Positions 1 to 53,397 of a stretch of DNA of 64,000 nt are shown here, in pieces; position 1 is the first letter of the stretch, and each line of letters starts with the position of its first letter. The notes below the pieces were generated by a model, which saw only the letters and a list, made by a program, of their open reading frames with translations, was not told the origin of the DNA and did no database searches. The stretch is from an uncultured candidatus Porisulfidus sp. GTDB taxonomy: Bacteria > Pseudomonadota > Gammaproteobacteria > Poriferisulfidales > Oxydemutatoraceae. The DNA lies in assembly GCA_965199685.1 (NCBI GenBank), contig OZ241323.1, positions 801,940 through 865,939 on the forward strand, in the 5' to 3' direction. The position numbers and the translations under genes were made by a program.

Positions 1-199
1 ATTAGACCTAGCACCCATTGCATATACTTAAGCTAATCTTTACCTTTGCTATCTCTGCCTTAAATTCACTCTTTAGCGTAACTATCTGCCTTAGTTGCCA
101 CTTCCTTTGAACCCGCAACATCGGCAACGGCTCACTTGGCTTCGTCTGCACACCTAATTTGGTTAGGGAATTATATAGGTAACTTGACAAGCTAATGAC

Positions 200-470
200 T
201 ATGGGACTGTTGAAAAAGTACCGACGTTGCACAAACCCAGCCGCTTTCGCCATTGAATTTACGAAAACGGTAGAGGCAGAATAGAACCGCCGATTATCGC
301 CGAGTGAAACCGCTACTTGAGCCAGTAGGTCAATCGGCGTGACATTGTACAGAGCCATAAATTGTACAGAGCCATAACATGACTGCTAAATGTATACATT
401 TAAAAATGCATAGGCCTGCCACCCCTCCAAAGGAGAGGAATGGACTAGCACTGTACTTGCAGGATATTAA
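200..470. repeat. Composite MITE-like intergenic repeat (ctgttgaaaaagta, ccattgaatttacgaaaacggtag, gccgatt..tcaatcggc hairpin and cccctccaaaggagagg hairpin modules); contains a 16-bp direct duplication attgtacagagccataa at 347-378
   Basis: Same modules recur at 10 or more other loci in the window; ORF 8..358 (-) lies inside it and is judged spurious. Confidence 0.7.
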
Positions 471-564
471 TGGTTTGTGCAACATAATCATGGCTACTGA
501 TAAATTAAATGGTTGGACGCATTATAATAGTCTCTTGCCAATGTGAAAGATGCAAGCATAAACC

Positions 565-1215
565 GTGAATTATAAAAATGTTATCTTAAGACACCAAGCG
601 ATACCGCGCTTCATTGAGACATATATTGCCGGAGTAGATGAAGCGGGACGTGGTGCTTTGGCGGGACCAGTGGTTGCCGCTGCGGTTATTTTGGATTCCA
701 AACAAACTATAGAAGGTTGTGTAGACTCCAAAAAATTATCGCCGGTTCGTCGCGCGCATCTAGCCGATAAAATAAAAGAGGTTGCGTGTGCTTGGGCTAT
801 AGGCAGTGCCGATAGCGATGAAATAGATCGCATAAACATACTCAACGCAACGCTACTGGCAATGCAAAGAGCGATTGAAGGTTTAGATCCTAAACCGCAG
901 CGCGTATTGATTGACGGCAACCGCTGCCCACAAAGTGATATTCCGTGCAATGCGATTATTGCCGGAGACGACCGAATGTTGTGTATTGCAGCAGCTTCTA
1001 TTTTGGCTAAAACGACGCGGGATCGGCAAATGCGAATGTTGGCGGATAGATATCCGTCGTATCATTTTGCTGAACACAAGGGCTATGCAACCCGTAAGCA
1101 CAAGCTGGCACTGACAAACCACGGCAGTTGCGCCTTGCATAGAATGAGTTGGGTTAAAGTGCGCGAAGCGATTGCTCAAGTGTCGCTACCTTTAGACCAG
1201 AGAGACGAATTGTAG
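565..1215 (+). CDS. rnhB: Ribonuclease HII
   Basis: AGVDEAGRGALAGPVVAAAVILD motif; length 216 aa; upstream of dnaE as in E. coli. Confidence 0.9.
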   Translation: MNYKNVILRHQAIPRFIETYIAGVDEAGRGALAGPVVAAAVILDSKQTIEGCVDSKKLSPVRRAHLADKIKEVACAWAIGSADSDEIDRINILNATLLAMQRAIEGLDPKPQRVLIDGNRCPQSDIPCNAIIAGDDRMLCIAAASILAKTTRDRQMRMLADRYPSYHFAEHKGYATRKHKLALTNHGSCALHRMSWVKVREAIAQVSLPLDQRDEL

Positions 1216-1240
1216 ATAGACAGAAAACATCGGATACAAC

Positions 1241-4200
1241 ATGAACCAGTTTGTACATTTACATTTGCACACCGAATACTCTATTCAAGATAGTGTATTG
1301 CGTATACCTGCGCTTTTTGAAAAAGCCAAAGCCATGCAATTCCCGGCGGTTGCAATAAGCGATGTCAATAATCTTTTTGCAGTAATCAAGTTTTATACCC
1401 AGGCACTAGAACATGGGATAAAGCCGATTATTGGCTGCGAATTATCTATACACGCAGATGCCATTGCACCTGCCGGCGATCAATGCGTTGTTTTATGTCT
1501 GAATGAACGAGGTTACCGCAATCTAACACGCTTGGTTTCAACCGCTTATCTAGAAAATCATCAAGACGCAGAGGTCGCAGTGAGGCGTGAGGATTTAGAA
1601 CATTACAACGAAGGTTTATTGGTACTCTCAGGTGCATTACGAGGTGCGCTCGCACGGGCGTTATTGCAAGACGAATCGCCACAAGTGGATCGGTTAGTGG
1701 AGTTTTGGACTTCGGTATTCAAGGATCGTTTTTATGTAGAGATCCAATATACCCAGAGAGAAAACGAGAGCGATTATGTAGCAAAAGCGATTAAGTTGGC
1801 AAGACGGATGGCGTTGCCAGTGGTTGCAAGCAACGATGTATGTTTCCTGAACAAAGAGGATTTTGATTCGCATGAAATTAAGGTTTGTATTGCTGAAGGT
1901 CGTACTCTGAACGATAAACATCGCCAACAAGGTGTATACAGTCCCGAACAATATCTTAAAAGTGCCGACGAGATGATGGCAACATTCAAAGATATACCAA
2001 GTGCGATACGAAACAGTGTAGAAATAGCAAAACGTTGTAGCGTAGAACTTCAATTAGGGCAAACACACTTGCCGTCTTTTCCCATAGAAGCGGATCTTGG
2101 TGTAGAAGATAAGCTAAGACACGATGCCAGTGTGGGTTTGAAGGACTACTTGGATAAAAATAGCGACTTGGATCAAGCCGCATATACCGAACGTTTGGAA
2201 GCAGAACTGAAAGTAATTAGTGAGATGGGTTATGAAGGCTATTTTTTGATCGTTGCTGATTTTATTCTATGGGCCAAGCGCAACGATATTCCAGTCGGTC
2301 CGGGACGAGGTTCGGGAGCAGGGTCTTTGGTTGCTCATGCGTTGGGGATTACTGAGATAGATCCTCTGAAATATGGTTTGTTTTTTGAGCGTTTTCTGAA
2401 TCTTGACCGCATATCGTTGCCGGATTTTGATGTTGATTTTTGTATAGAGGGTCGTGATCGCGTCATCCAATATGTAGTCGAGCGATACGGGCAAGATAAT
2501 GTCGGTCAGATTATTACTTTCGGCAGTCTGGGGGCTAAGGCGGCGATACGCGATGTGACTCGCGTGCTCGGCTATGCCTACGGTTTAGGAGACGATATCG
2601 TCAAACTGATACCGTCGCGTTTGAACATCAAACTAGGCGAAGCACTTATAGAATCTCCTGAGTTAAAAGAACGTTACGATAGTGAGGCAAGGGTCAAAAG
2701 GGTGTTTGATAATGCTCTGAAGATAGAGGGTTTGGTTAGAAATGTCGGCCAACACGCCGGTGGTATAGTCATCGCGCCTGCCCCACTGACCGATTACACT
2801 TCGTTGTATAAAGAAGCCGATCATCAAAATGCCGCAACGCATTTTGATATGAAAGATATAGAAAAAGTGGGCTTGGTGAAGTTTGATTTTCTAGGGCTTA
2901 AAACCTTGACCATTATCAACAAAACTTTGGCAAACCTTGAGCATCGCGGTATTTCGATTCCCGAAATCTCACAAATACCATTGGACGACTCTAAGACCTA
3001 CGACTTATTGAAAAATGCCGAAACGACCGCATTGTTTCAACTGGAATCGGATGGCATGCGTCGCTTAATTAGAAAACTAGAACCCGATCAATTTGAGGAT
3101 ATCGTAGCCCTTGTTGCACTCTATCGTCCCGGTCCATTGAAAGCTGGCATGGGCGACAGTTATGCAAACCGTAAGCACGGTGAGGAATTTGAATACCAGC
3201 ATCCGATATTGAAGCCGATATTGAGTAACAGCTACGGGGTCATTTTGTATCAAGAGCAGGTTATGCAAATTGCACAAGAACTCGCCGGTTATACTCTGGG
3301 CAGAGCTGATATCCTGCGCCGTGCAATGGGTAAGAAAGACCCTGAGGAGATGGCAAGTCAGCGAGCAATTTTTGTAGACGGTGCTATGGCAAACGGTGTG
3401 GCTCGCGGGGTTGCGACTAAACTTTTTGATCTGATAGAACATTTTGCCGGTTATGGATTCAATAAATCACATTCGGTTGCTTATGCACTCGTAGCCTATC
3501 AAACCGCTTGGCTTAAAAGCAATTATAGCGGTGCTTTTATGGCGGCAGTATTAACATTGGATATGTCGGATACCGACAAAATCATAGATTTGTTGAGTGA
3601 GTGCCGCAACTTGGGGTTGACGATAGTGCCGCCCGATATCAACTGCTCGGACTACGAGTTTAGGGAAATAGAAGAAGGGAAGATACTTTACGGCTTGGGT
3701 GCAATACGCCAAGTCGGTTATGAGATGATCAAGGCTATCGTAGACGAACGCAAAGCGCAAGGAGACTATCAATCGTTGGCAGATTTTTGCCGTCGCCTAG
3801 TGCCGAAACTCAGGACTAACATGATTGAACCGCTAATATCGGTCGGTGCCTTTGATAAGATCGAATCTGATAGAGCCTCGGCACTGCAATCTTTGGAAAA
3901 TGTCTATGATCTGGCAGAGAAAACTTTCCGTGATAACGAAACAGGTCAAGCCAGTATCTTTGGCGAGGCGCATACTTCATATACTGCCTCCGAAACACTT
4001 GATAAAGTTACCGGAACTATGACCGAAGCGCAACTATTAGAAAAAGAAAAAAACAGTTTGGGTTTTTATCTGACCGCACATCCTATTTCTCAGTGTAGCG
4101 ACAAGATAAAAAACATCGTTGATTATCAAAGCCTCAGCGACTTCAAGCAATCAATCAGAACATCCAAGCACGACGAAAAAGAAGCGGTTTGGCTTGCTGG

Positions 4201-4774
4201 TACCATGGATAAGGTTGAGCATAGAGTTATTTATAGAAAGTCTTCAAACCAAAAAAATAATAAGTCTGAGCAGCAGAAAGAAAGAAAGGGAAAATCGGCT
4301 GCATTTTTCATGCTCGACGATGGCACTGATAGGCTTAATTTATCACTTTTTGACAACGATTATAAGAACTGTAAAGACCAGCTCTCTTGTAAAGATATCG
4401 TTGTCGTCGGTGTATATAAGGCAGCTTACGATATTCAAAACAACAACGATCGCTGGCGAGCTTCACGGATCATGACGCTTGAGCAAGCTGAGCAATCGTT
4501 TGCTAAGAATCTTAGCATTGTATGGGACACCGGCAGTCTGGGTGACTCATCTCAAAAAGATGGCTTGGTTGATAAATTGCTAGCATCAATGCAACCGTTT
4601 ATGAAACCTTCTGGAGGGTGCAAGGTTTATATAATATTTCGCAACGCCAATGCAGAAACTAAAATGGTGCTATCCGAGGCGTGTAAAGTGGAACCCAGCA
4701 AACAGATGCTTGAAAGTATAAAAAGTATCCCAGGCATTCTAGACCTTAGAATAGAATATAGACCCACTCATTGA
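1241..4774 (+). CDS. dnaE: DNA polymerase III alpha subunit
   Basis: 1177 aa; N-terminal PHP domain (HLHLHTEYS), conserved polymerase core, OB fold. Confidence 0.95.
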   Translation: MNQFVHLHLHTEYSIQDSVLRIPALFEKAKAMQFPAVAISDVNNLFAVIKFYTQALEHGIKPIIGCELSIHADAIAPAGDQCVVLCLNERGYRNLTRLVSTAYLENHQDAEVAVRREDLEHYNEGLLVLSGALRGALARALLQDESPQVDRLVEFWTSVFKDRFYVEIQYTQRENESDYVAKAIKLARRMALPVVASNDVCFLNKEDFDSHEIKVCIAEGRTLNDKHRQQGVYSPEQYLKSADEMMATFKDIPSAIRNSVEIAKRCSVELQLGQTHLPSFPIEADLGVEDKLRHDASVGLKDYLDKNSDLDQAAYTERLEAELKVISEMGYEGYFLIVADFILWAKRNDIPVGPGRGSGAGSLVAHALGITEIDPLKYGLFFERFLNLDRISLPDFDVDFCIEGRDRVIQYVVERYGQDNVGQIITFGSLGAKAAIRDVTRVLGYAYGLGDDIVKLIPSRLNIKLGEALIESPELKERYDSEARVKRVFDNALKIEGLVRNVGQHAGGIVIAPAPLTDYTSLYKEADHQNAATHFDMKDIEKVGLVKFDFLGLKTLTIINKTLANLEHRGISIPEISQIPLDDSKTYDLLKNAETTALFQLESDGMRRLIRKLEPDQFEDIVALVALYRPGPLKAGMGDSYANRKHGEEFEYQHPILKPILSNSYGVILYQEQVMQIAQELAGYTLGRADILRRAMGKKDPEEMASQRAIFVDGAMANGVARGVATKLFDLIEHFAGYGFNKSHSVAYALVAYQTAWLKSNYSGAFMAAVLTLDMSDTDKIIDLLSECRNLGLTIVPPDINCSDYEFREIEEGKILYGLGAIRQVGYEMIKAIVDERKAQGDYQSLADFCRRLVPKLRTNMIEPLISVGAFDKIESDRASALQSLENVYDLAEKTFRDNETGQASIFGEAHTSYTASETLDKVTGTMTEAQLLEKEKNSLGFYLTAHPISQCSDKIKNIVDYQSLSDFKQSIRTSKHDEKEAVWLAGTMDKVEHRVIYRKSSNQKNNKSEQQKERKGKSAAFFMLDDGTDRLNLSLFDNDYKNCKDQLSCKDIVVVGVYKAAYDIQNNNDRWRASRIMTLEQAEQSFAKNLSIVWDTGSLGDSSQKDGLVDKLLASMQPFMKPSGGCKVYIIFRNANAETKMVLSEACKVEPSKQMLESIKSIPGILDLRIEYRPTH

Positions 4775-4809
4775 TATATGAAAGTACGGGTTTGCAATCA
4801 ACGAGCAAT

Positions 4810-4883
4810 GCCGAGGTAGCACAATGGTAGTGCAGCGCACTTGTAATGCGAAGGTTGGAGGTTCAAGTCCTCTCCTCGGCACC
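4810..4883 (+). tRNA. tRNA-Thr (anticodon UGU)
   Basis: Cloverleaf: acceptor GCCGAGG/CCTCGGC, anticodon loop CTTGTAA, T-loop GGTTCAAGTCC; resembles E. coli thrU. Confidence 0.85.
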
Positions 4884-4890
4884 GTGCAAA

Positions 4891-5227
4891 GGCGAGTTGG
4901 TCTATAAGCCGGGTTCTGTTTTGGCAATCATCCATCTGGGATATATGTCGCCATATACCTCTAGCGGTCTACCCGAGAGTCTGCGCGGGCAACGCTTAAC
5001 GCTCTCCTATTCAACCTTGCTCCGAGTGGGGTTTACCTTGCCACCAATGTTACCATCAGTGCGGTGTGCTCTTACCACGCCTTTTCACCCTTACCTCTGA
5101 AACGAGGCGGTATCTTTTCTGTGGCACTTTCCATGGACTCGCATCCTCCAGACGTTATCTGGCACTCTGCCCTGCGGAGCCCGGACTTTCCTCTATGTAT
5201 TGAGCATAGCGACTGCCCGACCAACTC
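4891..5227 (-). ncRNA. rnpB: RNase P RNA (bacterial type A)
   Basis: Reverse complement contains AGGAAAGTCCGGGCTCC (P4), GGTAAGGGTGAAA..GGTAAGAGCACACCGC, ACAGAACCCGGCTTA and a P1 pairing GAGTTGGTC/GACCAACTC. Confidence 0.85.
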
Positions 5228-5239
5228 TGTGTCAGCATA

Positions 5240-5655
5240 ACATATTTGGAGTCTTGTTGAAAAAGTACTGTGATTGCCGAAACGTAACCGCTTGCGCCAT
5301 TGAATTTAAGAAAACGGTAGGGGCGGACTTATATGTCCACCCTACGGTACCGTTCTGTACTACTGCAACCGCCACGCGCTATCAAATTATGGTTTCCATG
5401 AATTAGATGTCGTACGATTTCGTTTGTGCGGGTGCGTTGCGTTTCGGGAGGGCATGTGAGGCTGTTGAAAAAGTATCTGCATTAGTACATTCCCCTCCTT
5501 TGGAGGGGTGGCAGGCGAAGCCTGACGGGGTGGTTGTTAAGGTTCTGAACACTGTTACGCCGATTGACCTACTGGCTCAATCGGCGGTTCTGTTTTTCAA
5601 CAGCTCCATGTTAGCCCTCCTCTACGGTGCCTGAAATACTTTTTCAATAGCCCCA
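5240..5655. repeat. Composite MITE-like repeat cluster; 5461-5629 is a near-complete about 170-bp element with terminal inverted ends gctgttgaaaaagtat ... ttttcaacagc plus internal hairpins
   Basis: About 94% identical to 49315-49482; ORFs 5200..5406 and 5407..5634 lie within it and are judged spurious. Confidence 0.75.
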
Positions 5656-5697
5656 CGCGTCGTGCGTCGGCAGGGTGCGTTGCGAAGGTATTGTAAA

Positions 5698-6189
5698 ATG
5701 AACACCATGACGATAAAAAAAGATATCACCATTATTTCCGGCGGACAAACAGGTGTGGATAGGGCAGCTTTGGATGTTGCATTAGAGTTGGGGATATCCT
5801 GTGGCGGCTGGTGTCCTGAGGGACGGCTAGCCGAAGATGGTGCGATTGCTCAACACTACCCGCTAAAAGAACTTGTCGGAGGAGATTATGTTCAACGCAC
5901 TATGCACAATGTGTTGGACAGCGATGCGACCCTGGTTATCTATTTTGATCAATTGGAAGGCGGCACCGAATTAACGGTTGAATTTTGCAATCAAAAAGCC
6001 AAGCCAGTTTTAGTGATAGATGCAAACGCCGTACAGTTTTCATCGGCAGTTGATAAGATGCTAGACTTTACTCGCCGACATCAACTTGAGATTCTGAATA
6101 TCGCCGGACCTCGTGCCAGCAAACAACCCGCTGCTTACGCATATACCAAAGCATTATTGACCGATTATTTGCAAAAACTCCAGCAATAA
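5698..6189 (+). CDS. SLOG-superfamily protein (putative molybdenum-carrier-like, PF12694-type)
   Basis: ISGGQTGVDRAALDVALELGI..GGWCPEGRLAEDG motif block recalled from MoCo-carrier-like proteins; start chosen at MNTMTIKKD. Confidence 0.5.
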   Translation: MNTMTIKKDITIISGGQTGVDRAALDVALELGISCGGWCPEGRLAEDGAIAQHYPLKELVGGDYVQRTMHNVLDSDATLVIYFDQLEGGTELTVEFCNQKAKPVLVIDANAVQFSSAVDKMLDFTRRHQLEILNIAGPRASKQPAAYAYTKALLTDYLQKLQQ

Positions 6190-6209
6190 AAGCAAAAGAT
6201 ATAGCAAAA

Positions 6210-6515
6210 ATGGATTCGATAAAATTATTGCAACGTCTCAAACGCGAACACGATTACTATAATCGTTTTTTCACATTATCACTGGCTGCCGTTATATGCT
6301 TGATTGGACTTGCTTTTTGGTGGGCGGAGATTCCTTTGTTGGATGAATATAAAGTGATTGTCGGTTTGATAATGATTTTTCTGGCGTTTGTTTTTTATAA
6401 TATCCCTTATCTTGTGTATCGCTTGTTGCGCAGACGCTATCGCAATGACGAAGCGGTGAAGCAGTTGATGGGTAAGCGGTGGTATTTCTATAAAAGCAAT
6501 ATCATGAACCGCTAG
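6210..6515 (+). CDS. Hypothetical small membrane protein
   Basis: 101-aa ORF with two predicted TM helices; no recognisable family. Confidence 0.3.
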   Translation: MDSIKLLQRLKREHDYYNRFFTLSLAAVICLIGLAFWWAEIPLLDEYKVIVGLIMIFLAFVFYNIPYLVYRLLRRRYRNDEAVKQLMGKRWYFYKSNIMNR

Positions 6516-7068
6516 GCTTTCTATATGTAGCAACAACAAAGTAGACGAGAAAAATAATTGCTAGCCAGCCGGCGGTTGCCCAGCCATTATAATAATCGTA
6601 CGGCCCGACCAAGAAATGCCAATCTGATTGTTCGTTGAAATAAGATAATTTTTTATCCACCTTGAGCGTTAATATCCATCCGCTGTGTATGCCTATGCAA
6701 GCCCATACATTTGTGGTCTTTAGGCGCACGATACCTAGCAATACACCAGCTAAAAAAAGACTGAGTGCGGTTGAGAAATAGTTGCCGTCCCAATGCATTG
6801 CGATACTGTCGGCAAGTATCACCGAACCATAATACCAAGGTGCATCGGCGGGTAATTCGCTTCCCTTGATGCGTGCAAAATGTATCACTGCGAAGAACAA
6901 GGCAGTCAATAGTATTGCGGATAGCGGTGCTTTATCTTTTAGAAAACCCTCAAACAAAATCCCTCTGAAAAAAGTTTCCTCTATTAAAGAAACCACAAAG
7001 GCGGCAAGCAATAACGATGCCAACTTAACTGCAAAGGCATCCCATGCAAAGTCCGGTGATAGATTCAA
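6502..7068 (-). CDS. CPBP (CAAX protease/Abi) family intramembrane metalloprotease, catalytic part
   Basis: EETFFRG (motif 1, EExxxR) and downstream His-containing TM helices; it starts at TTG and lacks the N-terminal TM helices. Confidence 0.6.
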   Translation of the reverse strand: MNLSPDFAWDAFAVKLASLLLAAFVVSLIEETFFRGILFEGFLKDKAPLSAILLTALFFAVIHFARIKGSELPADAPWYYGSVILADSIAMHWDGNYFSTALSLFLAGVLLGIVRLKTTNVWACIGIHSGWILTLKVDKKLSYFNEQSDWHFLVGPYDYYNGWATAGWLAIIFLVYFVVATYRKPSGS

Positions 7069-7415
7069 ACCCGAAGATCCAACAAATGGAACAACCCGGT
7101 GACAGGCAACATCATCGCTATGCCTACAATGAAACCGTAGAACAATAATCCGCGTCGTGTTTGGTTCCCGTTTACCGACCAGCCTACGTTCTTATGATCT
7201 AGCAAGCCCTTGAACTTGAGTATTGCGACGATGACCAATAAAATTGCCAGCATCGCCAGCCGTTTCCCGAAATTATCGAAATCAATTAGACCATCGATGC
7301 CTAACAATTTATAGAGTGGTTGCGCGACCAAGCTACTGCCTAGGATTGCAAGCAATACGGAAAATAGAAAAAGCAGAAATAAGCGCATCGAGTCGGTTAT
7401 CGTTGGAATAATCAA
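7065..7415 (-). CDS. N-terminal transmembrane segment of the same CPBP protease (split/frameshifted)
   Basis: 116-aa polytopic ORF ending in a TTGA overlap with the downstream CPBP catalytic ORF. Confidence 0.4.
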   Translation of the reverse strand: MIIPTITDSMRLFLLFLFSVLLAILGSSLVAQPLYKLLGIDGLIDFDNFGKRLAMLAILLVIVAILKFKGLLDHKNVGWSVNGNQTRRGLLFYGFIVGIAMMLPVTGLFHLLDLRV

Positions 7416-7440
7416 TTATAATAAGCTATTTTTAAGCGAT

Positions 7441-7523
7441 GCGGAAGTGGCGAAATTGGTAGACGCGCTGGCTTTAGGTGCCAGTGGGATATTCCCTTGA
7501 GAGTTCGAGTCTCTCCTTCCGCA
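7441..7523 (+). tRNA. tRNA-Leu (anticodon UAG), long variable arm
   Basis: Acceptor GCGGAAG/CTTCCGC, anticodon loop TTTAGGT, T-loop GAGTTCGAGTCTCTC. Confidence 0.85.
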
Positions 7524-7565
7524 TAGTTTTAAGGCTATAATAATCGTTCAAAACATACCAGTTTA

Positions 7566-8852
7566 ATGAATTGTAGAATAGAAGAAATAGATACTTTCGG
7601 GCGCAAACTTTATATTGATATCCCAGCGGCGGATTTTAACGAGCGGGTTAACGCAAAGCTCCGCAAACTCTCTACCACCGCCAATATCAAAGGCTTTAGG
7701 CCGGGTAAAGTACCGCTGGAGATAATCAAGCGTTATTACGGAGAGGAGGTAGAAGACGATGCTATTGCTGCCTTAATACGTGAGAACTATACAAGAGCTG
7801 TGGAGCAACATTCTTTTCATACCATGAGCATTCCTTCCTTTGAAGATGTGGAGGTGGATACCGACAAAGGCATTAAATGCACGGCTTATGTAGAAGTGCT
7901 ACCTGATTTGCAGTTAAATACTTATGAGGATATCACGATTGAAAAGCCTTTTTGCGATATTACTGAGGCGGATGTAGATGCTATGGTGGAACGAGTGCGT
8001 AAGAGTAATCCTAAATGGCAGGTCAAAGACGGACCGGCATGCGTTGACGACAGGGTTACTATTGATATGAGCCGAGCAGGAACCGACAAGGAACCAATTT
8101 TTGACGATAAAAGCTATGTCTTAGGTTCAGAGCCATTGGGCAAGTATCTTGATACACAGATTGAAAATATGCGTGCCGGTGAAGAGAAGGAAATTAGTTT
8201 TAAGGAGCACACTAGTGAAGAACCTGTGGACTCGGATAGAGTAGAGCGATATACCGTGCATTTGAAGTTGGTAGAGAAACCAATTTTGCCTGAACTGGAC
8301 GACGATTTTTTCAAAGTGTGCGGCATCAAAGAGGGTGGGTTGGATGCTTTGCGTAGCTCGTTGCTTGAAGGCATGGAGGCGGAAGCGAAAAGAAAAATCT
8401 CGCAATTATATTGCACCAATATAGAAAATGTAATGCTGACTCACGCTAACATAAAAGCACCTCCAGCGATTTTGAAGGAGGAAATTGAAAAAATCAAGAA
8501 GCGCTTGGTTGATGATGGTATGAGTTATTCCGACAGAGGTATATCCGATGAGTTACTCGAAAAAACTGGCAAACGTCAAGTTTGTTTGAATATCCTGTTT
8601 ACTTACATTAATAAAAAAAATAACTTCAAGGCCGATCGTAACGCATGCGAAGCTAAAATTGACCAATTAGCACAAGATTATAAGGAGCCTGAGCGTATAA
8701 GAAGCCACTACCGTAGCAATGCAAATGCCTACCGCCAAATTGAAGATATGGTGGTTCAAGACAAAATCATAGATTATGTAGCCAAAGAAGCAAGAACAAG
8801 CGAGAAAAAATACTCGTTTTACGAGCTTATGGGTATGGAACAAACACAATAG
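7566..8852 (+). CDS. tig: Trigger factor
   Basis: 428 aa; GFRPGKVP motif; co-linear with E. coli Tig. Confidence 0.9.
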   Translation: MNCRIEEIDTFGRKLYIDIPAADFNERVNAKLRKLSTTANIKGFRPGKVPLEIIKRYYGEEVEDDAIAALIRENYTRAVEQHSFHTMSIPSFEDVEVDTDKGIKCTAYVEVLPDLQLNTYEDITIEKPFCDITEADVDAMVERVRKSNPKWQVKDGPACVDDRVTIDMSRAGTDKEPIFDDKSYVLGSEPLGKYLDTQIENMRAGEEKEISFKEHTSEEPVDSDRVERYTVHLKLVEKPILPELDDDFFKVCGIKEGGLDALRSSLLEGMEAEAKRKISQLYCTNIENVMLTHANIKAPPAILKEEIEKIKKRLVDDGMSYSDRGISDELLEKTGKRQVCLNILFTYINKKNNFKADRNACEAKIDQLAQDYKEPERIRSHYRSNANAYRQIEDMVVQDKIIDYVAKEARTSEKKYSFYELMGMEQTQ

Positions 8853-8862
8853 GAGTTAACTT

Positions 8863-9480
8863 ATGAACCAACTTGAGGAAACCGCATTGAATTTAGTGCC
8901 TATCGTAGTAGAAAAAAGCGCACGCGGTGAGCGATCTTACGATATCTATTCGCGATTGCTCAAAGAGCGTGTGATTTTTGTCGTCGGTGCTATTAACGAT
9001 CATATGGCGAACTTAATCATTGCCCAAATTCTGTTTTTGGAATCCGAAAACTCGGATAAGGAAATCTCTCTTTATATCAACTCGCCGGGTGGTTCGGTGA
9101 GCGCAGGGCTTGCAATCTACGACACGATGCAATTTACACGACCCGAGATCAGCACATTATGCGTGGGACAAGCGGCGAGTATGGGGGCGGTTCTATTGGC
9201 GGGCGGCACGCACGGCAAACGTCATTTGCTGCCACATTCCAAAGTAATGATTCATCAACCGATGGGAGCTTTTCAAGGTCAAGCCACTGACATAGATATA
9301 CATGCTAAAGAAATCATCAAAACACGAGAGAAACTAAATCAGTTGCTAAGTAAGCATACCAAACAAACCATAGCCAAGATCCGCCGAGATACTGAGCGCG
9401 ACAATTTTATGGACGCAGAAGAAGCACTTGCATACGGTATCGTAGATAAAATACTCAAGCATCGAGATACCAAACCCTAA
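8863..9480 (+). CDS. clpP: ATP-dependent Clp protease proteolytic subunit
   Basis: High identity to E. coli ClpP ([28 protein letters not shown]). Confidence 0.95.
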
Positions 9481-9497
9481 AAGTTCCACATTACTAT

Positions 9498-9815
9498 TTG
9501 GGCTTACAGGTGGCTGCACTATCTTGCTTTATTCTGGATAATATGGAAAATATAGAACTTCTAACTAAACACGGAGAAATAACTATGTCGGAATTTGATC
9601 AAGAATTAGATACTTGTGGCTTGAATTGTCCTTTGCCGATATTGCACGCCAAAAAGACTTTGGCGAAGATGGAACAAGGCCAGGTTTTGCATATAATTTC
9701 AACCGACGCAGGTTCGGTTAAAGATTTTGAAGCGTTTTCCAAGCAGACTGGCAACGAATTGCTTGAATCTAAAGAGGAGGGCGGTAAATTTTACTTTTTA
9801 ATGAAAAAAGCATGA
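9498..9815 (+). CDS. TusA-like sulfurtransferase (SirA/TusA family)
   Basis: CPLP motif (LNCPLPILHAKK); the true start is probably an internal Met near 9585. Confidence 0.7.
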   Translation: MGLQVAALSCFILDNMENIELLTKHGEITMSEFDQELDTCGLNCPLPILHAKKTLAKMEQGQVLHIISTDAGSVKDFEAFSKQTGNELLESKEEGGKFYFLMKKA

Positions 9816-9861
9816 TGATTGATTTATCGAGGTGTTTGACTCTTATGCGATGTGAGCGTGC

Positions 9862-11393
<1,532 letters not shown>

Positions 11394-11403
11394 CTAAGCT
11401 GTA

Positions 11404-12186
11404 ATGCAACAGGTCAAGGGCAAGGCACTAAAGAAAGGCATTTTCTTATTGCCTAGTTTGATCACCATAGCTTCTTTGTTTAGTGGTGTCTATGCGATGA
11501 TTATGGCATACGCTGGAGACTACGAGCGTGCTGCGATTTTCGGTTTGCTTTGCGTTCTGCTTGATGGCATAGACGGGAACGTTGCCCGGCTGACCCATAC
11601 CGAGAGTCGTTTCGGTGCCGAACTTGATAGTCTGACCGATGTTGTTGTATTCGGATGTATTCCGGCACTGATTATTTATCAATGGTCGTTGGTTCATATT
11701 AGCGAGACTGGTTGGTTGCTCAGTAAACTAGGCTGGTTGGTGGTCTTTTTCTATATTGCCATGACGGTAATGCGATTGGCACGCTTCAACTCACAGCAAG
11801 ATACCTTGAAGAAATATTTTAGAGGCATGCCGTGCCCGGCAGCGGCAACCTTAATAATGAGCTTTATATGGGTATGGGAAGACATCGGTTATAGCGGTGT
11901 TGAAGCAATAGGTTTAAGCTTTGTTATTTTGCTTTTAAGCGGTATCGCAATGATTAGTAACCTCAGCTACTACAGCATTAAACAATTAGAGATAAGCAGG
12001 GTGTCTTTGACCGGTATATTGGCGGCAGTAAGTCTGCTGATCATAGTCTCTTTAGACATTCCCAAAGTTATCCTTTTTATATCGCTACTATATTTATTTT
12101 CGGGACCCTCTTTGTGGTTATCCAGACTACTCAAGAGACGTCTTGCGTATAAGCGCACACTACCATCCACTCGCTTAGGCAAATAA
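11404..12186 (+). CDS. pssA: CDP-diacylglycerol--serine O-phosphatidyltransferase (CDP-alcohol phosphatidyltransferase family)
   Basis: DGxDGxVAR-type motif (LDGIDGNVARL), polytopic. Confidence 0.85.
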   Translation: MQQVKGKALKKGIFLLPSLITIASLFSGVYAMIMAYAGDYERAAIFGLLCVLLDGIDGNVARLTHTESRFGAELDSLTDVVVFGCIPALIIYQWSLVHISETGWLLSKLGWLVVFFYIAMTVMRLARFNSQQDTLKKYFRGMPCPAAATLIMSFIWVWEDIGYSGVEAIGLSFVILLLSGIAMISNLSYYSIKQLEISRVSLTGILAAVSLLIIVSLDIPKVILFISLLYLFSGPSLWLSRLLKRRLAYKRTLPSTRLGK

Positions 12187-12214
12187 TACTGCCGTTTGTA
12201 ACCGTAATGAGAAA

Positions 12215-12604
12215 ATGAAAATCAAAGGATATCACTATACCGAATGTGGATTGAAAAATGTATATATTGAAGGCTTACCTGTCATCAATGACGACGGTAA
12301 AGAGATAATTCAAATTCCAAATATACAGGAATTACACTGGTTGATTGCCAAGGTTATCTTAGAATCCAAATCTATGAACGGAGATGAAATACGATTTCTA
12401 AGGACAGAGATGGGTTACACTCCTGAGGAGTTGTCAGAACAGTTAAATATGGCTTTAAGAACACTGAAGTCTATAGAAAACGGCAAAACCAAAATTAAAG
12501 AAGAGATAGACCTAAAAATACGCCAATTAGGTTTCTCAATGTTAATAATACCTAAACATCATTTATATAACACCAGTTACAAAGAAGAAAACCGAGGCCA
12601 TTGA
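12215..12604 (+). CDS. XRE-family HTH protein with MqsA/YgiT-like N-terminal domain (orphan antitoxin-like)
   Basis: C-terminal HTH GDEIRFLRTEMGYTPEELSEQLNMALRTLKSIENGK; AT-rich; no toxin partner adjacent. Confidence 0.4.
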   Translation: MKIKGYHYTECGLKNVYIEGLPVINDDGKEIIQIPNIQELHWLIAKVILESKSMNGDEIRFLRTEMGYTPEELSEQLNMALRTLKSIENGKTKIKEEIDLKIRQLGFSMLIIPKHHLYNTSYKEENRGH

Positions 12605-12925
12605 AAAAGTATCCTTGAGCCGTAGGGGAGGGCTAACATGAAGCTGTTGAAAAAGTATCGTCATCACTCAAACGTAACCGCTTGCGCCCTCAAATTTATG
12701 ATAACCAACTGTAGGAGTGGACTCGCATGTCCACCCTACGGTACCGTCCTGCACAAACCCAACCGCTATGCGCCACAAGATTATGGTTTGATAAATTTAT
12801 GGATGAATGTATAAATCGTGCAAATACGTCGCGTTAGGGCAGCATAAAGCCGCCGATTGAGCCAGTAGATCAATCGGCATTTCAATTGTCCGCCCCTACA
12901 AGTAGACATACTTTTTCAATGGCTC
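12601..12925. repeat. Composite MITE-like repeat cluster
   Basis: Modules ttgaaaaagtatc, ccgtaggggagggctaacatg, accgcttgcgcc, gccgattgagccagtagatcaatcggc, actttttcaatgg; overlaps the stop codon of the upstream gene. Confidence 0.7.
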
Positions 12926-12935
12926 TACCCTACGC

Positions 12936-13454
12936 CTACTCGTATAATCTCGGCATCAGTTCAACTAGATTGCACGGACGGGTTCTGTAATCCAGTTGAT
13001 GGCAGATGATTTTGTCCCATGCCTCGCCGCATGCACTAGGTGAACCCGGCAAGCAAAAGAGGTAGGTTGCATTTGCTACACCTGCCAATGCTCGTGACTG
13101 CAAAGTTGAGGTCTTGATTGTCTGGTACGATAAAGCTCTAAAGGTCTCGCCGAAACCTGCGATTTCTTTATCCAGCAATACCGAAATGGCTTCGGGGGTT
13201 CCGTCTCGTCCGGTTACCCCAGTGCCGCCACTACTGATAACGACTTGCACTTGCGCATCGGCAATCCATTGTGAGACCTGTGCGCGGATTTGATAGATGT
13301 CGTCGCGCACGATTTGTCGGTCGTAAACCAGGTGCCCGGCATCGGCAACCCGTTTTTCTAGTATTTGTCCTGAGCGATCGTCGGCAAGCGTGCGGGTATC
13401 GGAAACGGTTAATAAGGTGATATTTAGTGGTATAAAATCTCGTTCTGTGTTCAT
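12936..13454 (-). CDS. moaB: Molybdenum cofactor biosynthesis protein B (MogA/MoaB family)
   Basis: GGTGVTGRDGTPEA and LPGSPSA motifs; start at MNTERDF. Confidence 0.8.
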   Translation of the reverse strand: MNTERDFIPLNITLLTVSDTRTLADDRSGQILEKRVADAGHLVYDRQIVRDDIYQIRAQVSQWIADAQVQVVISSGGTGVTGRDGTPEAISVLLDKEIAGFGETFRALSYQTIKTSTLQSRALAGVANATYLFCLPGSPSACGEAWDKIICHQLDYRTRPCNLVELMPRLYE

Positions 13455-13503
13455 AGTTCTGCTATATTTGTGTATACTATTTATTGGTTTAATCGGAGGC
13501 ACT

Positions 13504-13998
13504 ATGGCCAGCAATACTTCTAATGATATAAACAAACAATTTTATAAGCAAGTTGAAATTTTGGAGCAACCTTTCGATGCTTTTGAAAAAATAAAAGCAT
13601 ATCAGAGGCAAATCTCTGCCGAAAAATCCGGAGCTTTATCGCTATTCGTAGGCACGATGCGTGATTTCAATCATGATAGGGAGGTGCAGAGCATGTGGCT
13701 TGAGCATTATTCGGAGATGACGCATAAATATATTGCAGCGCAGTTGGATGAAGTTCATAGCCGCTATCAAGTCAACGATATCCGTATTGTGCATCGTGTT
13801 GGTATGGTGTATCCGGCAGACACCATCGTGGTTGTTGCGGTTTGGGCGGCGCACCGTAGCGATGCAATTGCAGCAAATCATTATCTCGTTGAACAGCTGA
13901 AATCCAAAGCACCTTTTTGGAAGAAAGAAAAGTTCAAAGATCAAAGCGCGCACTGGGTTGCCGTGAATACGCCCGGTGCGAATATACCCCCACATTAA
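13504..13998 (+). CDS. moaE: Molybdopterin synthase catalytic subunit
   Basis: MoaE signature ...HRVG...VAVWAAHR...PFWKKE; start at MASNTSN. Confidence 0.8.
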   Translation: MASNTSNDINKQFYKQVEILEQPFDAFEKIKAYQRQISAEKSGALSLFVGTMRDFNHDREVQSMWLEHYSEMTHKYIAAQLDEVHSRYQVNDIRIVHRVGMVYPADTIVVVAVWAAHRSDAIAANHYLVEQLKSKAPFWKKEKFKDQSAHWVAVNTPGANIPPH

Positions 13999-14010
13999 AG
14001 GAGATCAAAC

Positions 14011-14595
14011 ATGAAAAACCTCAAACGACTATTGATTATTTATTCACTAATACTGTTTTGCTTACCTGTCAATGCGGCAGATTGGCAATTAAACCGCGAA
14101 CGCTCGTCGATTAGCTATCTCTCTTCCAAGCAAGCGACAGTCGAAACACCGCTGATGTTTGAAAGCAATCTTTTCCGTGAATTCTCAGGAACCATAGACG
14201 GCACGCAAGTTGAACTTGTGGTGGAATTAGATAGTTTGGACACCAAAGTGCCGATTCGTGACGAGCGGGTTGCCGAGCATGTCTTTTTGAGCAAGCAATA
14301 CCCACAAGCGATCGTATCCGCTACTGTAGACGATATTGAACAACTAAGTTATGAGAGCAAACAAATCTCGGCAACACTCACTATGCGTGGTCAAAGCCGT
14401 GACCTGCAAGCCGAAGTAATCATTGAGCGTAGCGACCCTAAAACACTGCGCATACAAACCACCACTCCGGTTCTGGTTGATGCCAACGCTTACGGCATGC
14501 TTGATGGATTTGCAACACTCAAGCAACTGGTTGGGCTGATGCAGATCCCGACGACTATACCAGTCAGCTTACACCTGGTATTTGAAACCAACTGA
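14011..14595 (+). CDS. YceI-like periplasmic polyisoprenoid-binding protein
   Basis: Signal peptide plus YceI domain (NRERSSISY..). Confidence 0.75.
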   Translation: MKNLKRLLIIYSLILFCLPVNAADWQLNRERSSISYLSSKQATVETPLMFESNLFREFSGTIDGTQVELVVELDSLDTKVPIRDERVAEHVFLSKQYPQAIVSATVDDIEQLSYESKQISATLTMRGQSRDLQAEVIIERSDPKTLRIQTTTPVLVDANAYGMLDGFATLKQLVGLMQIPTTIPVSLHLVFETN

Positions 14596-14607
14596 ACCAG
14601 TAATAGA

Positions 14608-15492
14608 ATGGAAATAATCGGCACTAAAAAAATCGCTAAAGAAACCATAAACTTATTTCCTTCTCAGGTTGCATACAACAAACTGGGTGCACCTCATTGT
14701 GTCTTTTTAGGGGATTGCTTAAATGTGCTAAGCCAATCTATTTCTGCCGATAGTGTTGATTTAGTTTTTACTTCTCCACCCTATGCAGACCAACGAAAAA
14801 ATAATTATGGAGGAATTGCTCCGGCTGATTATGTTGATTGGTTTTTACCAAGAGCGAAAGAAATCAAACGAGTTTTAAGGCCGTCAGGTTCTTTTATTCT
14901 GAATATCAAGGAGAAGGTGGTAAACGGGGAGAGACATACCTATGTCTTGGATTTGATTATCGGTATGCGTGAGCAAGGCTGGCAGTGGGTTGAGGAATAT
15001 ATCTGGCATAAAAAAAACTGTTATCCAGGGAAGTGGCCGAATCGATTTAGAGATAGCTGGGAAAGGCTCTTGCATTTTACTCTGTCTAAAAACTTCAAAA
15101 TGAGACAAGAGGCTGTTATGGTTCCTACCGGAGACTGGGCAGAAAACCGCCTAAAGAAATTATCTCAAACTGACAAAAGTCGAGATTTGTCCAAGAATAA
15201 AAATGGATTCGGAAAAAAAGTATCTAATTGGGTCGGGAGAAAACAAGCCTATCCTACGAATGTTATTCATCTTGCTACGGAATGCAATTATAGAGGACAT
15301 CCTGCTACATTTCCTGTGGAATTACCCTCGTGGTTTATAAAGTTATTTACTGATGAGGGAGATATGATTTTAGATCCTTTTGTCGGGTCAGGCACGACAT
15401 CGCTTGCCGCCTTGAATCTAAATCGTTGTTCTATAGGTATTGATATTCATGAAGAATTCTGTTTACTGACCCAAGAGAGACTTCTGAAGTGA
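14608..15492 (+). CDS. Type II DNA methyltransferase, beta-class (N4-cytosine or N6-adenine)
   Basis: Motif IV FTSPPY upstream of motif I DPFVGSGTT; AT-rich; 4-nt overlap with the downstream gene. Confidence 0.8.
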   Translation: MEIIGTKKIAKETINLFPSQVAYNKLGAPHCVFLGDCLNVLSQSISADSVDLVFTSPPYADQRKNNYGGIAPADYVDWFLPRAKEIKRVLRPSGSFILNIKEKVVNGERHTYVLDLIIGMREQGWQWVEEYIWHKKNCYPGKWPNRFRDSWERLLHFTLSKNFKMRQEAVMVPTGDWAENRLKKLSQTDKSRDLSKNKNGFGKKVSNWVGRKQAYPTNVIHLATECNYRGHPATFPVELPSWFIKLFTDEGDMILDPFVGSGTTSLAALNLNRCSIGIDIHEEFCLLTQERLLK

Positions 15493-16238
15493 CGAATCAA
15501 CCGGTATGGTGGAACACTGCTAAAGTAGAGATTGATGACATTATATTTGGCTTTTCTGATGCATTAAAAATCAAGTTGATGAAGCTTGGTGATAATCCGA
15601 TGTCTCTATTAAGCAAAAAGAATCCATTTTTACTGAGGATTAGAAGTACGGAAAATGTAAATACTTTTGCACAGAATATGATTAGAGCATTTTTGTCCTC
15701 CAGCGAGGAAACTAGATTTGGTTCTATTTTTGAGGGGTGTGCAGAAATAGTTTGTAAGTATGGACGAAATGGGCAAAAATCTGGAATTGAAGGCATAGAT
15801 ATTGAGTATTCAGAAAATACTACAAAGCGAGTATTAGTGCAAATTAAATCTGGGAAGAACTGGGGAAATGCGTCGCAGAAAAAGCAATTAAAAAATTATT
15901 TTGAAAAAGCTTCGAAAATTCTTAAGCAAAGTACTTCTATTAAAGATGTACGTTGCATTGAGGGAATTTGTTACGGCAAAAACGAACATAGACACTTTGG
16001 TAATCAAGAACGTATCGTCGGTTCACTCTTTTGGAGTGAAATTTCAGGTTGGGATAATTTATATTTCGCTTTAATGGATATAATCGGTAATCATGCGAGC
16101 AATGGATTACGTGATTTAGAAAACGAAATAATAAAGAAAATCATAGCCTTTATGCAGGATAAAAATTTATTAATTGATGAGGATAAAATTAATTGGAATA
16201 AGCTACTTTACCTTTTAAGTGGAACTGATTGCAGCTAA
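15489..16238 (+). CDS. Putative type II restriction endonuclease (PD-(D/E)XK)
   Basis: Operonic with the methyltransferase (ATGA overlap); candidate catalytic block EGIDIEY...VQIKSG. Confidence 0.5.
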   Translation: MTNQPVWWNTAKVEIDDIIFGFSDALKIKLMKLGDNPMSLLSKKNPFLLRIRSTENVNTFAQNMIRAFLSSSEETRFGSIFEGCAEIVCKYGRNGQKSGIEGIDIEYSENTTKRVLVQIKSGKNWGNASQKKQLKNYFEKASKILKQSTSIKDVRCIEGICYGKNEHRHFGNQERIVGSLFWSEISGWDNLYFALMDIIGNHASNGLRDLENEIIKKIIAFMQDKNLLIDEDKINWNKLLYLLSGTDCS

Positions 16239-16248
16239 TCATTGCATC

Positions 16249-17511: not shown

Positions 17512-18005
17512 CGTTTTTTAAGCATCACATAAGCTGCCCCGTTGCCACCGTCTTTGGGCATTGCGAACTCATAGGCGAGTATTTCGGGGCTGGCAATCAT
17601 ATACGAGCAGATTGTTATCTTAAGCACTGGTTCTCCTGGTGAAGACAGACCCTTGCCAAAGATTACCAAAAAGTAAGGTATTCTCTCGCTATGGCATTGC
17701 TTGATATGACCAATCAACATCTCAATCGCCGGTGTTTTGGTATAGCCGTGTAGGTCTAGATATGATTTTATTTTTCCGAAATGGTTTCTAAAACGACGCA
17801 GGCTTGCACTATTGGTGCCAGTGCTTTTATAAGATCTAGGTATCGGGTCAATGATGTCAAAAGGAATATTTTCTATATAATAAGCGTTCTGCACAGCTTG
17901 CTGTTGTTTTGAGGCGGCGGAGTGCCTTGATTTATCGCAAGCTAGTGTATTTTTAGAACTTTCGAATAATTCGCTGAAATTTAATTCTTTATCGGACATA
18001 ATCAT
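17508..18005 (-). CDS. Smr-domain protein
   Basis: LDLHGYT...Smr motif near the C-terminus. Confidence 0.7.
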   Translation of the reverse strand: MIMSDKELNFSELFESSKNTLACDKSRHSAASKQQQAVQNAYYIENIPFDIIDPIPRSYKSTGTNSASLRRFRNHFGKIKSYLDLHGYTKTPAIEMLIGHIKQCHSERIPYFLVIFGKGLSSPGEPVLKITICSYMIASPEILAYEFAMPKDGGNGAAYVMLKKR

Positions 18006-18034
18006 TCAAATTTTATAACAAGTTTAAGTTTTAT

Positions 18035-18784: not shown

Positions 18785-18786
18785 AA

Positions 18787-19443: not shown

Positions 19444-19715
19444 ATAAGGGGCTGTTGAAGAGTAGAACCGCCGTTTGTTGCAGTTGCACAAACGGCGTAA
19501 CATCGTGCAGAACCCTTTGCGCTCGCAAAAACGAAATCGTACATTATTCAATTCATGGAAACCACAACTCAGTGGCGCATAGCGGTTGGAATAGTGCAGA
19601 ACGGTACTTTAGGGAGGGCATGTTAGCCCTCCCCTACAGGTGGTTATCATAAATTCAATGGCGCAAGCGGTTGAGTTTTTACAATGACGATACTTTTTCA
19701 ACAACCCCATAAATG
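19444..19715. repeat. Composite MITE-like repeat with a variant hairpin module (gccgtttgttgca..tgcacaaacggc)
   Basis: Contains tagggagggcatgttagccctcccctac and gatactttttcaacaa modules; ORF 19221..19652 judged spurious. Confidence 0.7.
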
Positions 19716-27310: not shown

Positions 27311-27324
27311 GTTACGTTGTGGTT

Positions 27325-29116: not shown

Positions 29117-29203
29117 CAATCAATCGTAGTCGTGTTGAAAGATGTATTATAGACTAATCACACCACATTTATATAAAATACGAAGCTAAACAAGGAGAAA
29201 TCT

Positions 29204-37699: not shown

Positions 37700-37800
37700 A
37701 TTATACGAATTTGACAAAGTTTTTCAATGTTTGTAGAGTCATTGAAAAAGTACCATCATTGAATTTATTCTGCCCCTACAATTCTAATCGGCAGTTCTAT
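37700..37800. repeat. Short MITE-like repeat modules in the pyk-fba intergenic region
   Basis: cattgaaaaagtacc, cattgaatttattctgcccctac, aatcggcag. Confidence 0.55.
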
Positions 37801-44785: not shown

Positions 44786-44788
44786 AGT

Positions 44789-52340: not shown

Positions 52341-52350
52341 AGTTATAGAA

Positions 52351-53394: not shown

Positions 53395-53397
53395 TGG

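Follow-up and report, generated by a model that had tools for sequence, protein, structure and literature searches.

Nested IS1182-type MITEs and REP-like hairpins as the probable make-up of intergenic repeat clusters in a sponge symbiont

Introduction

What are the palindrome-rich repeats that lie between the genes of a small sponge-symbiont genome, and what put them there? The question is raised by a stretch of 64,000 nucleotides (64 kb) from an uncultured candidatus Porisulfidus sp. (contig OZ241323.1, positions 801,940 to 865,939 of the forward strand), which we call the window and within which all positions are counted unless another locus is named. A first-pass annotation, made from the letters alone, had described here one abundant, modular family of repeats resembling MITEs (transposable elements of the miniature inverted-repeat type). 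Our analysis instead resolves the repeats into a nested mosaic of MITEs of the IS1182 type, hairpins that begin with GTAG and resemble repetitive extragenic palindromes (REPs), and a separate hairpin module. We consider it likely, at a probability of roughly 80%, that the clusters built up in layers, as non-autonomous mobile DNA of two or more mechanistic kinds inserted.

Results

The repeat clusters are intergenic and exceed chance expectation

Eleven intergenic clusters share sequence modules far above chance across the window. Comparison of the window with itself by BLAST confined repeated DNA to nine stretches (200–447, 5254–5652, 12596–12900, 19448–19711, 26692–27296, 41497–42038, 44646–44802, 49292–49593 and 55690–55943), together 4.6% of the sequence; adding two small remnants (37739–37776 and 53393–53437) raises the share to ~5%. 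The at least 11 loci counted at first pass are therefore there, while their share, given as about 6%, is slightly lower. The 18-mer GGGGCTGTTGAAAAAGTA, allowing up to 3 mismatches, was found 15 times against 0.06 expected, and the hairpin GCCGATTGA-N9-TCAATCGGC (the C hairpin) 8 times against 0 expected, which excludes chance. A near-identical pair reported at 5461–5629 and 49315–49482, with about 94% identity, was recovered as 93% identity across 192 nt (5462–5653 against 49315–49506). Its supposed unit of about 170 bp, however, is really a 150-nt MITE (5458–5607; 49311–49460) plus half of a split REP hairpin.

Every cluster falls between open reading frames (ORFs) or RNA genes. The earlier placement between gene ends is too narrow, since cluster 5250–5654 is flanked by two divergent 5' ends, those of rnpB and an ORF. 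Stop codons abut or overlap elements at 12602–12604 and 55943–55945, and a further one (19441–19443) lies 4 nt ahead of an element, all as first noted; elements supply or abut the stops at 12602, 44646, 53394 and 55943. Copies are found in either orientation, and the genes on their two sides may be convergent, tandem or divergent. The internal hairpins described at first pass do exist, and as single strands they fold much better than shuffled controls: the C hairpin has a z-score of -6.9, the GTAG hairpin -4.9, the 150-nt element -6.3 and a 74-nt element -8.7, and the short CCCCTCC hairpin by itself reaches only -2.6. Three ORFs of at least 100 aa run largely through clusters, at 8–358 (-), 19221–19652 (+) and 27185–27496 (+), and are most likely spurious; six-frame ORFs over the elements are, as had been proposed, translations of the repeats.

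The repeats are shared by related sponge symbionts and match no catalogued family

The genes of the window (among them dnaE, rnpB, thrC, guaA and a tkt-gap-pyk-fba cluster) are those of a gammaproteobacterial chromosome, and their 82–90% identity to OZ244779.1 (Ca. Oxydemutatoraceae) indicates that the window comes from a related species. In a scan for the C hairpin over one genome per species, many matches fell, among the matches listed, in three genomes, namely OZ244779.1 and two Ca. Porisulfidus metagenome-assembled genomes (MAGs), with single matches each in unrelated genomes. All other modules co-occur in the same three genomes, and modules A, B and F were absent from 250 kb of unrelated loci. 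Copies thus extend well beyond this region, three related genomes being full of them. The carriers are sulfur-oxidising sponge symbionts, the relatives having genomes of roughly 2.2–2.5 Mb.

Rfam 15 at gathering threshold detected only RNase P and four tRNAs in the whole window, and no match at E <= 1 for 5230–5670. Region 5250–5656 gave no blastn match in 5,426 Escherichia coli genomes, which sets the elements apart from enterobacterial repetitive intergenic consensus (ERIC) sequences, bacterial interspersed mosaic elements (BIMEs) and E. coli REPs; nor did the element match a plasmid collection. The first-pass impression of a likeness to Correia, ERIC and BIME elements with a match to none of them is borne out. 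Like Correia elements of Neisseria and ERIC of enterobacteria, the repeats are intergenic, ~100–160 nt long, and have inverted ends that can fold into long hairpins. Correia elements duplicate TA. The elements of the window have GGGGCTGTTGAAAAAGTA ends and 4–5-bp duplications, a distinction drawn from the description of Correia elements and not from Neisseria sequence, and ERIC would match E. coli genomes, as these elements do not. We found no description of such repeats in the literature on sponge symbionts. In a text search of the literature only a 9-mer occurred, in apparently unrelated papers, several of them using primer-based assays, and the longer motifs were in none of the papers listed.

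Elements bounded by inverted repeats behave as MITEs

In the window and related loci of the three relatives (~620 kb together), GGGGCTGTTGAAAAAGTA forms a terminal inverted repeat (TIR) of 18–21 nt, with 211 copies distributed equally over both strands, a count that is biased for the relatives, whose loci were chosen for carrying the C hairpin. Neighbouring TIRs within 1 kb of each other are predominantly convergent (58 pairs, against 13–19 for each other arrangement), and convergent pairs fall into discrete size classes of ~150, 168, 208, 250 and 290 nt; the MITEs so delimited are non-coding and measure from 74 to ~290–350 nt. The largest class, with 27 members, can be aligned over its full length, and its members read, in order, TIR, AACCGCTTGCGCC box, GTAG hairpin, conserved core, the same hairpin inverted, and TIR.

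Exact flanking duplications accompany 21 of 57 pairs (13 of 4 bp and 8 of 5 bp), where fewer than one would be expected by chance, and the consensus just outside the TIRs is A-Y-R-T. Within the window the duplicated sequences are ATGT (around 5458–5607), ATAA (19448–19708), ACAT (26780–27016) and ATAT (55667–55740). A relative provides the matching filled site for an empty one: OZ244779.1 (locus L101, 627–760) carries a 134-nt MITE with AAAAT on both sides, and the window has a single AAAAT at ~23005–23009 and no element. The MITE in L101 lies within the last codons of the orthologue of ORF 22322–23023 and alters its C-terminus; in the window this ORF stops 3 nt before the next gene start. Target duplications together with this presence/absence polymorphism show that the elements have moved. 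The elements are thus MITEs by their TIRs, their target duplications, their small, non-coding, multicopy nature and the site that is filled in a relative and empty in the window.

In OZ244779.1, two inverted MITE ends enclose a transposase gene of the IS110 family (L065, 912–1886; NF033542, 216 bits), perhaps the result of an IS110 element entering a MITE.

An IS1182-family insertion sequence has the same ends

The same ends bound a 1815-bp insertion sequence (IS) in a sister Porisulfidus genome (locus L058, 1119–2933), whose 576-aa product is a transposase of the IS1182 family (379 bits with NF033551, where the cutoff is 270) and which sits in a REP loop with ACAT duplicated. A second, partial copy in the sister species (L076) occupies another REP loop in the opposite orientation and has the same end. 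No transposase of the plasmid collection exceeds 42% identity to the L058 enzyme, whose nearest relatives there are annotated as IS1182 family. In metagenomes, the 18-mer returned 120 single-match stretches, many at contig ends. IS1182-like transposases, with 27–43% identity, were present in nine of these; five of the nine elements are complete, 1.43–1.62 kb long with the TIR at both ends, and one has an exact 5-bp duplication. None of modules B, C, D and F occurred in the 120 stretches. Since the TIR bounds IS1182 elements in unrelated metagenomes and the other modules are absent there, it is a conserved end of the IS1182 group and the other modules are lineage-specific.

The suggestion of an undescribed MITE family hence stands as regards behaviour (TIRs, 4–5-bp duplications, empty site) but not as regards a single family, or an end without known kin. 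IS1182-related MITEs with 4-bp direct repeats are known in Methanosarcina (PMC3852290). The elements described here resemble them, as exemplified by the ISMac2-related MITEs of Methanosarcina acetivorans (PMC3852290), in being short, non-coding and multicopy, in sharing their inverted ends of ~20 nt with an element of the IS1182 family, and in their 4-bp direct repeats; the IS1182 family is placed in the IS5 superfamily. They differ in their host, a sponge-symbiont gammaproteobacterium, in showing both 4-bp and 5-bp duplications, in carrying REP-like and other hairpins as cargo, in their preference for hairpin loops, and in their heavy nesting.

GTAG hairpins are REP-like and flank a Y1 transposase gene in a sister genome

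REPs are short imperfect palindromes with a conserved 5' GTAG. The hairpins found here have the form GTAGGGG-N5-loop6-N5-CCCTA with a conserved G bulge, and ccgtaggggagggctaacatg, noted at first pass, is one half of such a 28-nt hairpin, GTAGGGGAGGGC-TAACAT-GCCCTCCCTA (D-type). Intact D-type copies lie at 19610–19637 and at 41585, 41743 and 41901, and a variant, GTAGGGGCGGAC...GTCCACCCTA, at 5317–5344. In 98 hairpins collected by their outer-base anchors only, the inner stem was paired at 5/5 positions in 90 and at 4/5 in the remaining eight, with eight perfectly complementary stem variants. Overall, 96.5% of cells were paired, compensatory change was seen at five of eight pairs, and none of 500 shuffles reached the observed score. 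Within the 250-nt MITE class REPs are found one at a time or in inverted pairs, whose two members stand ~100 nt apart.

A search by motif regular expression, checked with Pfam and NCBIfam, found in a sister Porisulfidus species (locus L033, ~6463–6975) a Y1 transposase gene lying between inverted D-type REPs and, alongside these, ~60 nt that make up the core of the 250-nt MITE class. Its protein scores 29 bits with Pfam PF01797, above the cutoff of 23, and had no match among solved structures; tblastn with the sequence of a REP-associated tyrosine transposase (RAYT) as query gave no significant match. RAYT genes are single-copy and flanked by their own REPs in inverted orientation (PMC3337134). 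The REP-flanked Y1 gene has this arrangement, and we therefore read the hairpins as REP-like, with part of the expected features in place. In common with the REP/REPIN-RAYT systems of Pseudomonas fluorescens and E. coli (PMC3337134) they are extragenic ~28-nt imperfect palindromes starting with GTAG, present in many copies with compensatory stems and in inverted pairs, with a short Y1 gene between them in the sister genome. Unlike those systems, the inverted pairs stand ~100 nt apart inside a frame of IS1182 ends, the RAYT-like protein scores under the curated cutoff, the window holds no RAYT, and the hairpins have no similarity to E. coli REPs.

Directly after thrC in OZ244779.1 (L101, 4432–4510), a B hairpin encloses a GTAG hairpin in its loop, CCCCTCC-TT[GTAGGGGCGGACTTGCATGTCCGCCCT]TA-GGGTGG. 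The loops of other hairpins can thus hold REP-like hairpins too.

Insertion into hairpin loops gives rise to nesting

Halves of REP loops account for 37 of 93 TIR flanks in a sister Porisulfidus genome, and a fixed site between modules H and F (the H/F site) for 32 of 83 in OZ244779.1, there with the 5-bp duplications ATCGT, TAAGA, CAAGG and GTCGT. The IS (twice, in both orientations) and several MITE classes occupy REP loops, flanked by a duplicated ACAT or ATGT. A MITE or IS that lands in a REP loop splits the hairpin, and the separated halves can be mistaken for long inverted termini. This explains the inverted termini ccgtaggggagggctaacatgGGGCTG... reported earlier, in which the MITE end is real and the remainder is the two halves of a REP hairpin split by a MITE.

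We propose that a DDE transposase of the IS1182 family, acting in trans, most likely recognises the GGGGCTGTTGAAAAAGTA ends of the MITEs, excises or copies them, and would integrate them by a staggered cut of 4–5 bp that leaves the observed duplications. The GTAG hairpins would most likely belong to a population of REPs and REPINs on which a RAYT-like Y1 transposase acts, reading the hairpin in single-stranded DNA. IS1182-type elements prefer REP loops containing AYRT or, in one relative, the fixed H/F site, and with such a preference one element comes to insert into another. Within a nest, any pair of inverted ends could then serve as a new end pair, which together with deletions may have produced the variants described as shuffled. 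Element 49311–49506 is the same composite as 5458–5654, made up of the inner element and 45 nt from the right side of the outer one; its presence at a new place is as expected from an alternative end pair or from a deletion on the left side.

Several insertion sequences target REPs, including IS1397 and ISKpn1 of the IS3 family and ISPpu9, ISPpu10 and ISPa11 of the IS110 family. Integration into the loop or stem of REP-type palindromes is common to these and to the elements described here. In our case, by contrast, the transposase is of the IS1182 family, non-autonomous derivatives also use the REP loops, and these derivatives bring REPs of their own, so that the nesting propagates itself. With the BIMEs of E. 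coli the clusters share mosaic intergenic arrangement and a limited set of motifs, some of them hairpins and some not, whose order and orientation vary, but here nested insertions with duplications account for much of the mosaic, and REPs of alternating orientation with fixed linkers do not.

Gene order differs from that of OZ244779.1 (loci L092, L101 and L103) near ~5660, 26690–27329, 29118, 36674 and 55950, and most of these breakpoints coincide with clusters 5250–5654, 26690–27296 and 55667–55943. Judged by coincident positions alone, this is consistent with the repeats marking or mediating rearrangements.

A separate hairpin module recurs in REP loops and direct arrays

The C hairpin, which has a conserved 5' flank of AGAACC or AAAGCC, occurs in two contexts. 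It lies in REP loops, once as three 38-nt tandem copies, and it forms units with modules F and H, an ATGCAT palindrome and a B hairpin that are directly repeated at 72 nt. In a variant, GCCGTTTGT...ACAAACGGC, the stem is kept through compensatory changes. Such a unit adjoins fabI, and a related one is present at the same gene end in the relative, where it is inverted with respect to the window.

Neighbouring C hairpins are mostly in direct orientation (29, against 12), and we set aside a dedicated transposase gene between inverted C hairpins, given this orientation and that no candidate gene stood out. We also rejected the idea that the hairpin arrays of 72 nt and 38 nt are CRISPR-like, since the would-be spacers turn out to be conserved modules.

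A TnpB element with inverted ends

A TnpB-only element in the window is precisely missing at the orthologous site of the relative (L103, 710–722). Its 24-nt terminal inverted repeats are TGGGAATTATATACCATTCTGCACA and, as reverse complement, GGGGAATTATATACAATTCTGCACA, and AATCAA(T) stands on both sides of it and once in the empty site. A 73%-identical TnpB homologue in another relative (L007, 5103–6372) also has 24-nt inverted ends, and a solo end of this type lies at ~166–189 of the window. By their published description (PMC4810608), elements of the IS605/IS1341 type lack both inverted ends and duplications, and the element is atypical in this respect; the apparent duplication could be a right end that carries the same motif as the target.

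Anatomy of the individual clusters

The cluster at 203–447 (+) is a truncated composite with the left end of a 250-type MITE, comprising the TIR (203–220), the AACCGC..GCGCC box (239–260) and the left arm of a REP. A degenerate C hairpin (312–338), module F (339–355), a 17-nt duplication (344–377), the ATGCAT palindrome and a B hairpin (422–438) follow. Cluster 5250–5654 (+) is a 250-type MITE with a nested MITE. Its TIRs lie at 5254–5271 and 5637–5654, the hairpin at 5317–5344 is intact, and alignment of the class reveals a second, inverted REP split into halves at 5445–5457 and 5608–5625. Inside this REP loop sits the 150-nt MITE (5458–5607, +), with ATGT duplicated at 5454–5457 and 5608–5611; it is built of a TIR, a B hairpin (5492–5508), modules I and H (5510–5536), F (5542–5558), a C hairpin (5559–5585) and a 15-nt TIR.

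The left end of an outer MITE is found at 12594–12639 (+), where a TIR-like sequence (12594–12611) contains the stop codon of ORF 12215–12604 and is followed by the left half of a split D-type REP (12622–12639). Next to it lies a 250-type MITE (12640–12926, +) with TIRs at 12640–12657 and 12909–12926, a REP hairpin at ~12712–12739 and a C hairpin (12852–12878) in the loop of a second, inverted REP. The MITE at 19448–19708 (+) is a 261-nt chimera flanked by ATAA at 19444–19447 and 19709–19712. It starts with a short TIR, a C2 hairpin (19470–19496) and F (19497–19513), and continues as a reversed 250-type core with the intact D-type REP at 19610–19637 and a TIR at 19691–19708. It takes up the interval that separates the stop codon of pcm (19443) from the following ATG (19713).

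Cluster 26690–27296 (+) is a complex nest. An outer MITE end with its TIR at 26690–26707 is followed by a D-type REP split into 26762–26779 and 27017–27031, and between these halves lies a 237-nt MITE (26780–27016, +) with ACAT duplicated on each side, a 72-nt unit duplication, and B (26814–26830), C2 (26897–26923) and C (26969–26995) hairpins. The nest also holds a reversed 250-type core with a C hairpin (27151–27177) in a REP loop. A decayed remnant at 37739–37776 (+) retains a TIR-like CATTGAAAAAGTACC, a fragment of the box and a REP right arm.

At 41497–42038 (+), a MITE fragment has become part of a 158-nt tandem array of 3.4 copies with 97% matches. The fragment in the unit consists of a TIR-like CTGTTGACAAAGTA, the box and an intact D-type REP, and the unit also copies the overlapping tkt-stop/gap-start junction ATGATTAA. 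The array thereby places three extra gap ribosome-binding sites, start codons and first 8 codons upstream of the real gap.

A 150-type MITE without the short TIR (44647–44779, -) begins at the stop codon of ORF 44239–44646 and comprises C (44652–44678), F (44679–44695), H, I, B (44729–44745) and a TIR (44762–44779). The composite at 49311–49506 (+) joins the 150-nt MITE (49311–49460) to a REP half (49461–49478) and a 250-type right end, TIR-like up to 49506; a solo F-C unit lies beyond it at 49537–49593 (+), with its C hairpin at 49556–49582. The solo MITE end at 53393–53435 (-), a TIR (53418–53435) plus ~25 nt, adjoins the stop of ORF 52192–53394.

The 74-nt mini-MITE at 55667–55740 (+), whose fold z-score was given above, consists of two TIRs around a B hairpin (55690–55706), with ATAT duplicated at 55663–55666 and 55741–55744. 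It is followed at 55769–55943 (+) by an array of non-TIR units that abuts the fabI stop codon and contains a truncated C, F (55786–55802), H (55808–55822), C (55831–55857), F (55858–55874), the ATGCAT palindrome and a B-like hairpin (55924–55940). A 106-aa ORF adjoining this repeat cluster (55263–55583) matches only the C-terminal third of the HindIII endonuclease (PF09518, positions 187–284 of 285) and is probably a gene fragment.

Discussion

Our reading of the clusters as layered insertions has to be set against several observations that weigh the other way. The window contains neither an IS1182 transposase gene nor a RAYT gene, and the elements of the source genome may be fossils. Similarity between MITEs and the IS is confined to ~20–25 nt at each end, for which reason we do not retain a derivation of the MITEs from the IS by internal deletion. 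Exact duplications flank only 21 of the 57 pairs; many of the pairs may bring together ends that belong to separate elements of a nest, or may be degraded. A single RAYT-like gene was seen, in a different species, and its best NCBIfam match, REP-associated tyrosine transposase, reaches 58 bits under a cutoff of 80. The relatives' copy numbers come from the biased choice of loci described above. Lastly, the C hairpin and the B-ATGCAT-F-C-H units are without recognisable ends or duplications, and neither mechanism accounts for them.

Could a single mechanism, or none, explain the repeats instead? If everything, the GGGGCTGTTGAAAAAGTA ends included, were one REP/BIME-type system moved by a Y1 transposase (RAYT) with no DDE transposase involved, the abundance of GTAG-led hairpins with covarying stems, the RAYT-like gene flanked in the sister genome by hairpins and 250-nt-class sequence, and an architecture recalling E. 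coli BIMEs would all be natural. Y1 transposition, however, makes no target duplication and requires no terminal inverted repeats (PMC4810608), whereas 18–21-nt inverted ends, 4–5-bp duplications and an empty site are found here, and the same ends bound IS1182 transposase genes both here and in unrelated metagenomes; we regard this explanation as very unlikely. A derivation from the TnpB (IS605-superfamily) element, with the repeats as palindrome-associated elements (PATEs), appeals to TGTGCAGAA, which occurs in both module F and the TnpB element ends, and to the position of that element beside the largest cluster. The kinship suspected at first pass nevertheless comes down to these ~9 nt. The 24-nt TnpB ends are not repeated with the family, with three occurrences in the ~620 kb of related DNA, two of them the element's own ends, against 80 for module F. 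As delimited by the orthologous empty site, the element spans 27867–29117 (tnpB ORF 27906–29111), outside the cluster, and the repeats carry TIRs and duplications. We see next to no chance of such an origin.

It is also quite improbable that the modules are host-selected sites conserved in place, such as terminators, mRNA-stabilising hairpins, protein-binding sites or small RNAs. Their strong predicted folding, the compensatory changes in their stems, their frequent location right after stop codons and the unit at the 3' end of fabI in both window and relative are what such sites would show, but Rfam gave no match with the cutoff relaxed to E <= 1, neither the orientation of the elements nor the type of gene pair around them (convergent, tandem or divergent) is constant, and target duplications and presence/absence polymorphism show movement; the unit beside fabI points in opposite directions in the two genomes. 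A terminator consensus scan of positions 1–20000 found 19 sites against 19.9 expected, none inside a repeat. With this background-level result and hairpins that lack T-tails, we rejected intrinsic terminators as an explanation. We see no sign of a host function; some copies may have been co-opted secondarily, and effects on neighbouring genes are plausible from the positions of the elements. A more far-reaching version of the layered-insertion reading would make hairpin loops a shared landing pad, with IS1182-type integration into REP loops, self-nesting that breeds chimeras as ends are used in alternative pairs, and the C hairpin as a third mini-element, mobile on its own; as the MITEs carry REPs as cargo, each insertion would make new targets. 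We hold this extension to be tentative and rather doubtful.

Taken as layered insertions, the repeats are undescribed but ordinary bacterial junk DNA, IS1182-type MITEs and REP-like hairpins, which resemble BIMEs in architecture only. They reveal no new kind of system, and their specialist interest lies in loop-targeted self-nesting and in the orphan C hairpin. Such elements nevertheless make up ~5% of the sampled stretch of a small sponge-symbiont genome. They lie within operons, where 19448–19708 separates pcm from the next gene and 41497–42038 triplicates the tkt/gap junction, as well as at gene ends and where gene order departs from that of the nearest relative. They matter for annotation through the spurious ORFs translated from them, and for the assembly and binning of symbiont MAGs, and they may serve as markers of recent genome rearrangement. 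The interlocking of DDE-type MITEs with REP-type hairpins offers a tractable case for studying how an IS1182 transposase chooses its targets, and bears on the origin of BIME-type mosaic repeats.

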